From Methanobacteriota archaeon (GTDB lineage Archaea > Thermoplasmatota > Thermoplasmata > RBG-16-68-12): 14,554 nt of DNA. A model generated the notes under the pieces. That model searched no databases, was not told the DNA's origin, and was given only the letters and a program-made list of their open reading frames with translations. Location: assembly GCA_005878955.1 (NCBI GenBank), contig VBMI01000078.1, forward strand, positions 1 through 14,554, given 5' to 3'. This document shows positions 9,342 to 11,857 of the stretch, one piece after another (position 1 is the first letter of the stretch; the number at the start of each line of letters is the position of its first letter). Made by a program: the position numbers and the translations under genes.

Positions 9342-9620
9342 ATGCCGATCACCCTGCGGTTCATCTTCATCTCCGAGGCGGACAAGCCCACGGTGACCCT
9401 GAAGATCCCGGAGGACATGCTCTTCCAGGAGGCGTTCGTCCTCGCCGCGAAGCGTCAGGGCAAGGACGCGGGGATCCTCACCGCGACGTACCCGGGCGGC
9501 TCGCCGATCGCGGGCGGGACCGTGGGCGAGGTCTCGGAGAAGTCCACGAACATCCACGTGATCGACCCGAGCATCGTCGGCGGGCTTCCCGCGCTCGATT
9601 CTGGAGCCCTCACGGTTTAA
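9342..9620 (+). CDS. Ubiquitin-fold (beta-grasp) modifier precursor, UFM1-like; internal Gly-Gly followed by an 11-aa tail
   Basis: 92 aa with host-like GC3 codons. By eye it aligns with human UFM1 recalled from memory: S-[DE]-x3-P-x3-L-x-[VI]-PE-x3-F-x6-AA, then T-x-G-x-V, then I-x-P-x2-VG (ours: SEADKPTVTLKIPEDMLFQEAFVLAA .. GTVGEV .. VIDPSIVGG). I count roughly 18 identities over about 80 positions. The GG codons are at 9579-9584, followed by the tail LPALDSGALTV. Confidence 0.7.
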   Translation: MPITLRFIFISEADKPTVTLKIPEDMLFQEAFVLAAKRQGKDAGILTATYPGGSPIAGGTVGEVSEKSTNIHVIDPSIVGGLPALDSGALTV

Positions 9621-9648
9621 GCCAACCGCCGCCCTCTTGTCGGCTCCG

Positions 9649-10152
9649 ATGCCCCTCCGGATCCGGGACTACGGCGAGGCCCACCTCAAGACGGACGACG
9701 ACCTCTTCTACTTCCTCCAGTGCGCGACGGTCGCGACGCCGAAGGACCCCGGGTGGGGAGACCGGGCGGCAGAGGAGGTGTACGCCCTCGACCGATTCGC
9801 CGAGTACCTGCGGTTCCTCGAGAAGGACGAGTGGTTCGCCCTCCGGGCCACGAGCGCGTCGAAGACCCGGTGGACGGGGAAGGTCCGCCGCGGCGGGAGG
9901 GAGTGGGACGTCGAGCTCGTCCTGAAGGACGCGTACCCGCACGTCCCGCCCGCGTGCCGGATCCCCGAGCTCATGCACTACACGGACCGCAAGGTGGACG
10001 ACGCGAGCCTCGGCCTCCGGATCTGCGACATGCACATGGAGAAGAACTACTGGTGGGACGAGCACGCCTCCTTGGCGCTGTACCTGAAGCGGGAGGTGTC
10101 GTACTGGGTCCAGAGCGTCGTGAAGGACATGCGCGGGAAGGGCTGGCTGTGA
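9649..10152 (+). CDS. E2-fold (UBC superfamily) conjugating-enzyme-like protein, UFC1-like
   Basis: The track ORF starts at TTG 9637; ATG 9649 is more likely. Motifs: DEWFAL, KTRWTGK, YPHVPPACRIPEL, and LGLRICDMH with the candidate catalytic Cys (TGC 10024-10026). These parallel human UFC1 (recalled) at DWFRL, GTRWFGK, YPTTAPEIAVPEL and GGKICLTDH, and the generic UBC YPxxPPxxxF core. Confidence 0.75.
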   Translation: MPLRIRDYGEAHLKTDDDLFYFLQCATVATPKDPGWGDRAAEEVYALDRFAEYLRFLEKDEWFALRATSASKTRWTGKVRRGGREWDVELVLKDAYPHVPPACRIPELMHYTDRKVDDASLGLRICDMHMEKNYWWDEHASLALYLKREVSYWVQSVVKDMRGKGWL

Positions 10153-10910
10153 CGGAGCGCTACGCCCGCCTCCGCCTGTTCGGGCACGCGGACCTGACGA
10201 AGCTCGCGGACAAGCGCGTGGCGATCGTCGGCGTCGGGGGCCTCGGTGCCCTCAGCGCGGAGATCCTCGCCCGCCTCGGCGTCGGGGAGCTCGTCCTCTT
10301 CGACTACGACACGATCGAGGAGGCGAACCTGAACCGCCTCGTGTACCGGACCGACCAGGTCGGGGAGAAGAAGGTGGAGGCGATTCGCGCCCACCTCCGC
10401 GCTGCGAACCCGGACGTCCGGGTGACCCCGCACCCCTTCGACGTGACGGACGGCGAGGGGCTCGAGGCCCTGTCCGCCGAGGTCCCCCGGTGCGACCTCG
10501 TCCTCGGGTGCGTGGACTCCTTCGCCGTCCGGTTGTTCCTGAACGCGAAGTGCGTGGCGCTGCGGGTCCCGCTCATCGACGGCGGGGCCTCCGAGGACGG
10601 CATCAACGGCAGCGTCCACGTGGTGATCCCCGGGAAGACCGCGTGCTACCGGTGCAACCGCCCGGCGCTCCGGGACCCCTCCGCGGGGCGGGTGACCCGC
10701 CGCGACGACTCGGGCGCGTGCCACTTCACGTCCCTCCCCACGACGATGGCGATCGTCTCGAGCCTCCAGTGCCAGGAGGCGCTGAAGGTCCTCCTCGGGT
10801 TCGGGAGCGTCGCCCCGTACCTGATGTACTTCGGCCTCGAGGGCCGCCTCGAGCGGGTGGACTGGAAGCGGGACCCCCGGTGCGGCACGTGCGGGCGGAG
10901 GCGGGGATGA
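10149..10910 (+). CDS. ThiF/MoeB-superfamily E1 (adenylating) enzyme, UBA5-like, minimal 253 aa
   Basis: GTG 10149 overlaps the E2 stop (GTGA). Motifs: VAIVGVGGLGALSAEILARLGVGELVLFDYDTIEEANLNRL, NPDV, DLVLGCVDSFAVR, IPGKTACYRC (Cys codons at 10644-10646 and 10653-10655), GACHFTSLPTTM (Cys 10719-10721), LKVLLGFGSV..YL, CGTC (10881-10892). It is near-collinear with the human UBA5 adenylation domain as I recall it (VAIVGVGGVGS..LLLFDYDKVELANMNRL, IPGESACFAC, GVCAASLPTTMG, LKFLLNFGTVSFYL). Confidence 0.9.
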   Translation: MTERYARLRLFGHADLTKLADKRVAIVGVGGLGALSAEILARLGVGELVLFDYDTIEEANLNRLVYRTDQVGEKKVEAIRAHLRAANPDVRVTPHPFDVTDGEGLEALSAEVPRCDLVLGCVDSFAVRLFLNAKCVALRVPLIDGGASEDGINGSVHVVIPGKTACYRCNRPALRDPSAGRVTRRDDSGACHFTSLPTTMAIVSSLQCQEALKVLLGFGSVAPYLMYFGLEGRLERVDWKRDPRCGTCGRRRG

Positions 10911-11857
10911 CCGGCCCCGCGCACGTGAAGCGATCCGCGTGGCGGGCCGCGATGCACCACGCGGCCGACGTCGCCCGCGCTTCCGGACGGGAGGCGATCG
11001 GGTGGCTCCTCGGGTTCTTCGAGGGGGACGAGCCGTACGTCCTCGACGCGGTCCCGGCGACCCGATACCAGCACCAGAGCCGGTACGGCGCGGTCGCGGA
11101 CCCCGCGGAGGAGGCAGAGATCGCCATGCAGTACCCGCGGAACGTCGGGATCGTGGGGCTGTATCACTCCCACCCGTTCCGGGACGAGACCCGCCACGCG
11201 ATCTTCCACAGCACGACGGACGACGCAACGCTGAAGAGCCGGGCGAGCCGCCGGGAGAACTACCTCTCCCTCGTCACGGACGGGCGGTCCGCGGAATGCT
11301 TCGTGCACCGGGAGGGTGGGCCCGTCGAGGTGTCCCCCGCGATCGAGGAGGACCTGTCGATGGCCGGTCATCTCCGGAAGTTCACGGCATCCGTCTCGCC
11401 CTCCGTGTCCTTGACGCTCGCGAAGACGGACCTCGCGGGGGTCGTCGCGGCCCTCGAGCGCCGCGTCTCCTCCGACCTCGACCGCGTCCTGCGATCCGCG
11501 TCCGTGGGGAGTGCCTCGGTCCGCCTCGACGGGTTCGGCGGGGAGGCCCACCGGAACCGGCTCCTGATCGAGCCCGAGGGGGCGGGCTACGGGGTGGAGC
11601 TCTCCCTCCACCTTGAGCCCCTCGTGTTCGTCGCGGGGAAGGACGACGCGGAGGTCCTGCGGGCGATGCGGAACGAGATCCTCGACGACGTCTTGTTCCT
11701 CCTCTGGCGGGGGTTCGACCCCGCGTCCGTCTCCCTCGAGGGGGCCGAGCGGTTCGAGGCGAACCTCGGGACCCTCCGCGTCCACGAGGGGAGCCTGCTG
11801 CCCAAGAAGCTGTACCGGGCGCCGAAGCGGGCGACCGTGCTACGGCGCCGCGCGTAG
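10907..11857 (+). CDS. JAMM/MPN+ metalloprotease, copy 2, with a ~170-aa C-terminal region of unknown function
   Basis: ATG 10907 overlaps the E1 stop (ATGA), with GGAGG 6 nt upstream. N-terminal MPN motifs: GREAIGWLLG (Glu), GLYHSHPFRDETRHAIFHSTTDD (HxH-x12-S-x2-D, longer than the canonical x7). I recognise no motif in residues ~145-316 (nt ~11339-11854). The track's longer ORF (10490..) is an upstream out-of-gene extension over the E1 gene. Confidence 0.8.
   Translation: MTGPAHVKRSAWRAAMHHAADVARASGREAIGWLLGFFEGDEPYVLDAVPATRYQHQSRYGAVADPAEEAEIAMQYPRNVGIVGLYHSHPFRDETRHAIFHSTTDDATLKSRASRRENYLSLVTDGRSAECFVHREGGPVEVSPAIEEDLSMAGHLRKFTASVSPSVSLTLAKTDLAGVVAALERRVSSDLDRVLRSASVGSASVRLDGFGGEAHRNRLLIEPEGAGYGVELSLHLEPLVFVAGKDDAEVLRAMRNEILDDVLFLLWRGFDPASVSLEGAERFEANLGTLRVHEGSLLPKKLYRAPKRATVLRRRA

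Follow-up and report, generated by a model that had tools for sequence, protein, structure and literature searches.

The present study analyzes a four-gene operon in a 14,554-nucleotide stretch of archaeal DNA, hereafter the window, which corresponds to positions 1-14,554 on the + strand of contig VBMI01000078.1 (assembly GCA_005878955.1, Methanobacteriota archaeon; Thermoplasmatota; Thermoplasmata; RBG-16-68-12). It is probable, in our judgement, that this operon encodes an archaeal homologue of the core UFM1 machinery, that is, a UFM1-like ubiquitin-like modifier (Ubl), a UBA5-like activating enzyme (E1) and a UFC1-like conjugating enzyme (E2), coupled to a JAMM metalloprotease. A preliminary description of this DNA had placed the four genes in one orientation and had reported 4-nt start/stop overlaps joining the last three; reading of open reading frames (ORFs) bore out the layout, with all four genes on the + strand (Table 1), and direct reading of the sequence confirmed the overlaps GTGA (10149-10152) and ATGA (10907-10910) as well as the TGC codons of the presumed catalytic cysteines in the E2 (10024-10026, Cys130) and the E1 (10719-10721, Cys191).

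Identification of the second gene product as a UFC1-type conjugating enzyme is supported by motifs, profile searches and predicted fold. The landmarks that had first suggested UFC1, namely WFAL, TRWTGK, YPHVPPACRIPEL and RIC, are present, and the HPN triad is absent from the sequence. Compared with Pfam, the protein scored above the threshold of UFC1 (PF08694, 31.3 bits against a gathering cut-off of 25) and matched no generic E2 family, the only other match being to Prok-E2_B below its cut-off (17.5 bits, cut-off 25.4). In PDB, a profile built from 32 members of the E2 family retrieved UFC1 entries (E 7e-9) to the exclusion of any other E2. When 1.84 billion representative proteins were searched exhaustively with the E2 profile, 55 matched at E <=0.001. 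They comprise the family from which the profile was built (a single 50% cluster together with fragments), roughly 16 proteins from a second archaeal clade and some 30 UFC1 sequences of eukaryotes that are 45-90% identical to the human protein, and no canonical UBC enzyme is among them. The AlphaFold 2 (AF2) model of the E2 (predicted local distance difference test, pLDDT, 85.9) matched UFC1 in all of the top 29 PDB entries found by Foldseek (template modelling score, TM, 0.72-0.80; root-mean-square deviation, rmsd, about 2 Å; about 152 columns), as against a TM of at most 0.4 for canonical E2s. The presumed catalytic Cys130, numbered from the alternative start at 9637, lies within the invariant LGLRICDMHME, where RIC(130)D aligns with KIC(116)L of UFC1, and the invariant T116-D-R-K119 lies in the loop that in UFC1 holds the TAK motif (Thr106-Ala-Lys108), a loop 4 residues longer here. 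Overall identity to human UFC1 is about 26%; the UFC1 and UBA5 reference sequences used agree with the search alignments.

The E1 is supported, from sequence comparison, as UBA5-type rather than MoeB- or ThiF-type. Its signature LFDYD-TIEE-ANLNRL is present as described earlier except that the spacer has 4 residues and not 5, and the remaining motifs attributed to it, IPGKTACYRC, GACHFTSLPTTM, LKVLLGFGSVAPYL and a terminal CGTC, all occur as claimed. The protein matches Pfam ThiF, and relatives carry mixed labels, many being annotated automatically by JGI as ubiquitin-like modifier-activating enzyme 5 and by NCBI as HesA/MoeB/ThiF family. With phmmer, five UBA5 entries were its best matches in PDB (about 166 bits), followed by MoeB (118), ThiF (104) and Uba4 (71), and a profile of 25 family members widened the interval, with 240 bits for UBA5, 150 for MoeB, 120 for ThiF, 90 for Uba4, 59 for Cap2 and 58 for BubCD. 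Curated NCBIfam cut-offs were not reached for MoeB (129 of 266 bits), ThiF (128 of 275) or UbaA (106 of 450). The placement of the enzyme nearer to UBA5 than to MoeB, ThiF or UbaA is a ranking of bit scores that stands in for a maximum-likelihood tree with MoeB, ThiF, UbaA, ATG7, Bil and Cap2. Identity to the adenylation domain of human UBA5 is 37.5% over 240 residues. The segment GACHFTSLPTTM aligns with human GVCAASLPTTM, which holds Cys250 (family consensus GxC(H)xTSLPTTM), and the presumed catalytic Cys191 thus falls in the crossover loop, is present in at least 90% of family members and is not accompanied by a separate Cys domain. The glycine-rich ATP loop, DYD...ANLNRL, SLPTTM and the zinc cysteines C166, C169, C245 and C248 are invariant in the family.

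For the Ubl, the model and profile comparison favour a UFM1-type modifier. The motifs SEADKPTVTLKIPEDMLFQEAFVLAA ... TVGEV ... IDPSIVG are present as reported, and identity to human UFM1 is about 23%. Foldseek comparison of the AF2 model (pLDDT 86.7; disordered tail under 50) ranked UFM1 in all of the top seven places (rmsd 1.2-1.4 Å, TM 0.82-0.89 by target), with SUMO and ubiquitin coming next at 2.5-3.1 Å. Comparison by hhalign used unverified reference sequences of decoy Ubls alongside one of human UFM1. A profile of the Thermoplasmata family alone aligned with human UFM1 at 65.8% probability, over the N-terminal half only, and with ubiquitin and MoaD at about 0.4-0.5%. When Asgard-type sequences were added the match to human UFM1 rose to 94.5% (E 7.6e-8, 81 columns), and it is because these sequences joined the profile that the match became full-length; controls with the same widened profile gave 9.8% for ubiquitin, 4.4% for SUMO1, 1.0% for NEDD8 and at most 0.5% for MoaD, ThiS and URM1. 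The likeness to UFM1 proposed from motifs alone was upheld by fold, and in the hhalign comparison ThiS, MoaD and ubiquitin scored far lower. Among Pfam families, Ufm1 was the sole recurrent one, with weak matches in 4 of 26 relatives (best E 0.0069).

Relatives of the Ubl retrieved number 68, at 66-92% identity to the window protein. In the family alignment most members terminate exactly at Val-Gly (...DPSIVG), and V79 and G80 are invariant in all 26. Mature UFM1 likewise terminates in Val-Gly. The mature part of the window protein would be residues 1-80 (9342-9581), ending Val79-Gly80, with residues 81-92 (9582-9617) forming a variable tail of about 12 residues that this copy and its closest relatives carry and most orthologues lack; the second glycine of the window sequence VGG belongs to this tail, and the conserved end is a single Val-Gly.

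The fourth gene encodes a protein in which a JAMM/MPN+ domain (about residues 1-135) is followed by some 180 C-terminal residues for which no match was found in Pfam or PDB. The models Prok-JAB and JAB match 25 of 25 family members, the window protein itself scoring 23.4 bits against Prok-JAB, just under the cut-off of 25. All of 25 sequences share E29, H87-S-H89-P, S102 and D105 without exception; the spacer from HxH to S exceeds the canonical 7 residues and is more variable. In PDB the domain has its best relative in the Rpn11-like protease of Caldiarchaeum, an enzyme that processes archaeal ubiquitin. The protease is a JAMM metalloprotease and not a UfSP, as had been recognized. We presume that it trims the Ubl tail and removes the modifier from conjugates. 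Because most Ubl orthologues already end at Val-Gly, a role as deconjugase is likelier than one as obligatory maturase; in the window it would do both.

Several observations weigh against this identification of the operon. The window Ubl matched no Pfam family, Ufm1 (PF03671) included, and no PDB sequence, and a HMMER profile of Thermoplasmata Ubls alone found nothing in PDB, failing to reach UFM1. In the E2, correspondence of T116-D-R-K119 to the TAK motif is ambiguous: MAFFT pairs T116 with T106 and R118 with K108, and the HMMER alignment of the same loop differs. The E1 ends 5 residues past its second CxxC, where its stop overlaps the JAMM start, and has no counterpart of the UBA5 C-terminal extension; in the human enzyme this extension carries UFM1-interacting and UFC1-binding sequences, and its deletion abolishes UFM1 activation (PMC12355090). 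Recruitment of Ubl and E2 must therefore differ from that in human UBA5. Neither an E3 of UFL1 or DDRGK1 type nor a UfSP was found among the genes of the window or the called genes of related loci; absence of a UFL1-like E3 from the window had been noted from the start. Finally, the operon adjoins SUF genes, a rhodanese gene and a second JAMM gene, which could suggest sulfur chemistry.

The last point leads to an alternative explanation in which a ThiS-, MoaD- or SAMP-type protein is thiocarboxylated by the E1 for cofactor or tRNA thiolation, or serves both as sulfur carrier and as modifier in the manner of SAMP/UbaA and Urm1/Uba4. The operon does stand directly after sufBCD-sufU-sufS, a desampylase-like JAMM gene and a rhodanese gene in the window, and E1-like enzymes of this superfamily often have two roles, as is established for UbaA and Uba4. 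However, only the closest relatives (L004-L006) retain the SUF/JAMM/rhodanese neighbourhood, which other loci lack; since the upstream JAMM-rhodanese pair is limited to these relatives, it probably forms a unit of its own, sulfur-related or of SAMP type. Moreover the E1 falls under the cut-offs for MoeB, ThiF and UbaA and is without a rhodanese domain, the Ubl ends in Val-Gly and not Gly-Gly and scored no higher than 0.5% against MoaD, ThiS and URM1, and there is in every case a dedicated E2, whose Cys is invariant. We regard a sulfur-carrier system as improbable. The upstream JAMM (8462-8938, +) is itself canonical, with 74 bits against Prok-JAB and 83 bits against the desampylase model (cut-off 130), and at the end of the SUF operon its gene shares 14 nt with that of the single-domain rhodanese (8925-9278, +).

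A scan for the E2 with two peptide patterns, in one genome per GTDB species, gives a lower bound of at least 30 species-level genomes, four of them closed chromosomes, from organisms labelled Thermoplasmata, Methanomassiliicoccales, Thermoplasmatota or "Methanobacteriota archaeon". A survey for the same four-gene block had been suggested at the outset, and the block was recovered across these 30 Thermoplasmata-type genomes, with start/stop overlaps, the order Ubl-E2-E1-JAMM being kept in essentially every locus of sufficient length; recurrence of this order argues that the arrangement is more than chance. Across loci, identity to the window proteins is 63-96% for the Ubl, 53-86% for the E2, 51-87% for the E1 and 33-72% for the JAMM protein, the Ubl being the most conserved component of the cassette.

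A second, independent version of the cassette, which adds support for the proposed reading, became apparent through the most distant E1 relative listed, which comes from a Promethearchaeota (Asgard) metagenome-assembled genome. On that contig the order is a 360-aa protein with a terminal zinc ribbon, E1, JAMM (370 aa), Ubl (84 aa, ending ...NRGTVG-SPLTD) and E2 (190 aa, with ICHDHM and 23 bits against Pfam UFC1). Scanning of metagenomes with the Asgard-type E2 gave 61 loci, mostly of 27-34% G+C, in which the order p360-E1-JAMM-Ubl-E2 recurs or the genes diverge as JAMM/E1 and Ubl/E2, often with a Band7 gene near. We assign this second archaeal clade to Asgard archaea on the basis of the one NCBI Promethearchaeota record, the low G+C and the provenance of the contigs, which we take to be Loki's Castle and SMTZ sediments. 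The clade includes natural Ubl-E2 fusions (P0293, P0294, P0298, P0306 and P0315) joined through ...(D/G/E)VG and a linker, so that release of the modifier would need a cut after the Gly. In 24 Asgard-type loci a zinc-ribbon protein of about 360 residues precedes the E1 (L034 2694-3776; loci L041-L090), and in one E2-like protein of this type (P0323) Ala replaces the catalytic Cys and a zinc ribbon is fused at the C-terminus.

In a neighbor-joining tree of E2 sequences the Thermoplasmata, Asgard-type and eukaryotic proteins form three separate clades (bootstrap 99-100), and mean distances between them are nearly equal (0.81-0.84), suggesting that none is nested in another at this resolution. 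An alternative explanation for the operon could be recent horizontal acquisition from eukaryotes or contamination of the assembly, in either of which cases it would say nothing about how the pathway arose, and it is true that the best characterised relatives of the Ubl, E1 and E2 are eukaryotic. This would not account for the 69-72% G+C of the region, the 4-nt gene overlaps and the archaeal-type promoter boxes, nor for occurrence of the cassette in 30 species-level genomes with four closed chromosomes included, identities to human proteins of only about 23-38%, or the three well-supported, nearly equidistant E2 clades. Judged from the sequences, the window system does not look like a recent transfer, and this alternative, contamination included, is hardly credible.

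Comparison with bacterial operons raises a further possibility. The bacterial E1-E2-Ubl-JAB operons (the Iyer/Burroughs/Aravind classes; Bil, Bub and CBASS Cap2/Cap3) have an equal parts list within one operon, and such prokaryotic sets are often defence systems, so that the window operon might be an anti-virus system that tags phage or host proteins on infection. The PADLOC E1-E2 (Cap2) models do match the E1 adenylation domain, with up to 93 bits, and the JAB models match weakly. These matches are, however, confined to the generic adenylation and JAB cores, with 16 bits for the E2 and none for the Ubl, and the families differ, in that Cap2 and BubCD scored about 58 bits against 240 for UBA5 with the E1 profile in PDB and Prok-E2_B remained below threshold with the E2 at 17.5. 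The setting is also unlike a defence island, which would be mobile and quick to evolve: chromosomal context is stable, neighbours are of housekeeping type (PCMT, DUF6015), conservation is vertical over a class-level clade, the modifier is highly conserved, and no CD-NTase or effector gene was found among the genes of the window. A defence function is very unlikely on these grounds.

The likeliest function of the operon, by analogy with its homologues, would be a thioester relay from modifier to E1 to E2 that ends in lysine modification and is reversed by the JAMM protease. This function is proposed because of the homology of the cascade, the invariance of catalytic residues in the four proteins and the conserved translational coupling of their genes, and each step is drawn from homology and conserved residues. 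In the window the protease would cut the 12-residue tail and expose Gly80, whereas most orthologues would need no such cut, their translation products already terminating in Val-Gly. Acting presumably as a homodimer, as do UBA5 and MoeB, the E1 would adenylate Gly80 with ATP and then bind the modifier through a thioester to Cys191 of the crossover loop, from which it would move to Cys130 of the E2. The E2 would in turn place it on target lysines, either unaided or with a partner, candidates for which are the neighbouring zinc-ribbon protein and the C-terminal region of the JAMM protein, and the JAMM domain would undo the modification.

Additional features were seen in deeper-branching Thermoplasmata loci. 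There the E1s (L001 6480-7370 and relatives, P0258-P0282) bear a C-terminal helix of 25-45 residues (..L.EIE.AA..FD.M) that is absent from the window E1. The E2 paired with one of them in L001 (E1 P0271, E2 P0073) bears an extra C-terminal tail, WTKxIxD, which is found in several deep-branching E2s (P0070, P0073, P0075, P0083 and P0087). This possible co-occurrence of helix and tail may reflect an element for docking of E1 and E2, positioned like the UFC1-binding sequence of UBA5.

Table 1. Coordinates of the operon and adjoining features in the window
Feature	Position	Strand	Length	Remarks
TATA-box-like element TAAATAAT	9309-9316	+		About 29 nt upstream of the Ubl ATG; putative operon promoter
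UFM1-like Ubl	9342-9620	+	92 aa	
UFC1-like E2	9649-10152 or 9637-10152	+	167 aa or 171 aa	ATG start (9649) or TTG start (9637)
UBA5-like E1	10149-10910	+	253 aa	GTG start; adenylation domain only
JAMM/MPN+ metalloprotease	10907-11857	+	316 aa	
Double-zinc-ribbon protein	11840-12235	-	131 aa	Pfam DZR and Zn_Ribbon_1 matches

G+C content across the window is 64-72%, and it is because of this that many long ORFs are spurious or over-extended, such as 4471-6666 (731 aa, from sufC into the sufD region) and 9720-10910 (396 aa, in the E1 frame and beginning within the E2 gene); true starts were therefore taken from orthologues. For the E2, orthologues and gene calls on identical metagenome contigs begin at the ATG at 9649, which is probably the start codon. 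The operon was earlier said to lie behind its own promoter. An AT-rich element, TAAATAAT, does stand in the intergenic region, which has 69% G+C, and comparable boxes (TTTATAG, TAAATAA, GTATAAG and ATATATAA) precede the Ubl gene in most related loci; promoter function as such is inferred only. The element is putatively an archaeal promoter, from which the transcript would be nearly leaderless, and a scan of the window for sigma-70 promoters, a model irrelevant for archaea, gave no match. Between this element and the Ubl ATG lies a 7-bp G+C-rich inverted repeat, GGACGGG-ttcgcgg-CCCGTCC (9320-9340), which scored as terminator-like on the minus strand and has no obvious conservation in L005 or L006.

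Genes in the 5' part of the window are LigD-N, DUF4440, MsrB and a glyoxalase, followed by the SUF operon (sufB, sufC, sufD, a NifU-like gene or sufU, and sufS), the JAMM gene at 8462-8938, the rhodanese gene at 8925-9278 and a gap of 63 nt before the four-gene operon. Beyond the operon on its 3' side are the convergent double-zinc-ribbon gene, DUF6015, PCMT and a transporter. In most Thermoplasmata-type loci the zinc-ribbon gene follows the cassette immediately, DUF6015 and PCMT being present in many, and in the window it converges on the JAMM gene with an 18-nt overlap of their 3' ends. Homologues occur in L001 (8444-9649), L035 (7336-8481) and L002 (9001-9381), the long forms having an N-terminal transmembrane helix, and zinc ribbons accompany both types of cassette. 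The protein may be an accessory factor or a target, and its membership in the cassette is uncertain. Protein-repair genes in the window are MsrB (1834-2220, -) and PCMT (13010-13678, -), with DUF6015 at 12638-13003 (+), and PCMT and DUF6015 recur beside the cassette in L002, L004, L005, L007, L012 and L019. Such surroundings hint at a neighbourhood of protein damage or quality control, or could be coincidence.

Compared with eukaryotic UFMylation, the archaeal system shares a UFM1-fold modifier with a Val-Gly end, a UBA5-type E1 with a crossover-loop Cys and a four-Cys zinc site, and an E2 of UFC1-type fold with Cys at the aligned position and no HPN. It differs in that the archaeal genes stand in one operon, a JAMM protease takes the place of UfSP1 and UfSP2, no UFL1, DDRGK1 or CDK5RAP3 is encoded nearby, the TAK motif is not clearly conserved, and the E1, unlike human UBA5, is without the C-terminal UFM1-interacting sequence (UIS) and UFC1-binding sequence (UBS). 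Among prokaryotic systems, the Ub/E1/E2/RING/Rpn11 set of the Caldiarchaeum subterraneum type is similarly an archaeal operon for a eukaryote-like cascade with a modifier-processing JAMM, but has a ubiquitin ending in Gly-Gly, a Uba1-like E1, a UBC-fold E2 with HPN and a RING E3, whereas the window system is UFM1-type with no recognisable E3. SAMP/UbaA/HvJAMM1 of Haloferax and TtuB/TtuC are alike in having a prokaryotic Ubl, a MoeB-like E1, a JAMM desampylase and lysine conjugation; they differ in having no E2 and in using ThiS/MoaD-like modifiers with Gly-Gly that double as sulfur carriers, while the window E1 reaches only 106 of the 450 bits that the UbaA model requires and has a dedicated UFC1-like E2 beside it.

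A partial precedent lies in Asgard archaea, in which Ufm1 homologues have been described, with the statement that other prokaryotes lack them (Köstlbacher et al., Nat Microbiol 2026, preprint 2024, PMC12962969). These share the prokaryotic Ufm1 fold, and the Asgard-type loci found here encode a protein with ...VG and a tail; by contrast the window derives from a Thermoplasmata-type archaeon, and its proteins belong to a separate clade, with an E2 only about 25% identical and another gene order. That report concerns the modifier only, with UFC1, UBA5, JAB and gene context unmentioned (PMC12962969). Prokaryotic UBA5 homologues had already been published in 2023 (PMC10183829), and Picchianti et al. 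2023 considered UFM1, UFC1, UFSP2 and C53 exclusive to eukaryotes; in the literature searched, the pathway is pictured as a mosaic of bacterial and Asgard parts. The preliminary impression that a UFM1-type trio was undescribed outside eukaryotes must thus be narrowed, since UBA5 homologues (PMC10183829) and Asgard Ufm1 (PMC12962969) were in print, and it appears to stand for the E2 and for the operon. No report of a prokaryotic UFC1, of the four-gene operon or of a Thermoplasmata Ufm1 was found in the open-access literature searched, so these elements, a prokaryotic UFC1-type E2, a JAMM-containing operon and the whole set in Thermoplasmata, appear undescribed, even though the cassette sequences are already public under automatic Pfam and KO labels.

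In animals UFMylation is an essential process, and it has links to human disease. A complete set of UFM1-type modifier, E1 and E2 in archaea outside Asgard alters the inferred distribution and origin of the pathway and contradicts current statements on the former. It also suggests that the first UFM1 protease was a metalloprotease, and offers a system of four proteins suited to recombinant reconstitution, with a UBA5-type E1 that lacks the tail and a UFC1-type E2 that lacks UFL1. We suggest tentatively, as a scenario with somewhat less than even prospects, that the UFM1-UBA5-UFC1 core pre-existed as a JAMM-containing operon in archaea well beyond Asgard and was inherited by eukaryotes as a unit, with later exchange of JAMM for UfSP and addition of UFL1, DDRGK1 and the UBA5 tail, as opposed to having been assembled in eukaryotes from parts of mixed origin. 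If this is true, the archaeal form would represent an ancestral UFMylation that is E3-independent or assisted by zinc-ribbon proteins, and its targets might belong to translation or protein quality control.

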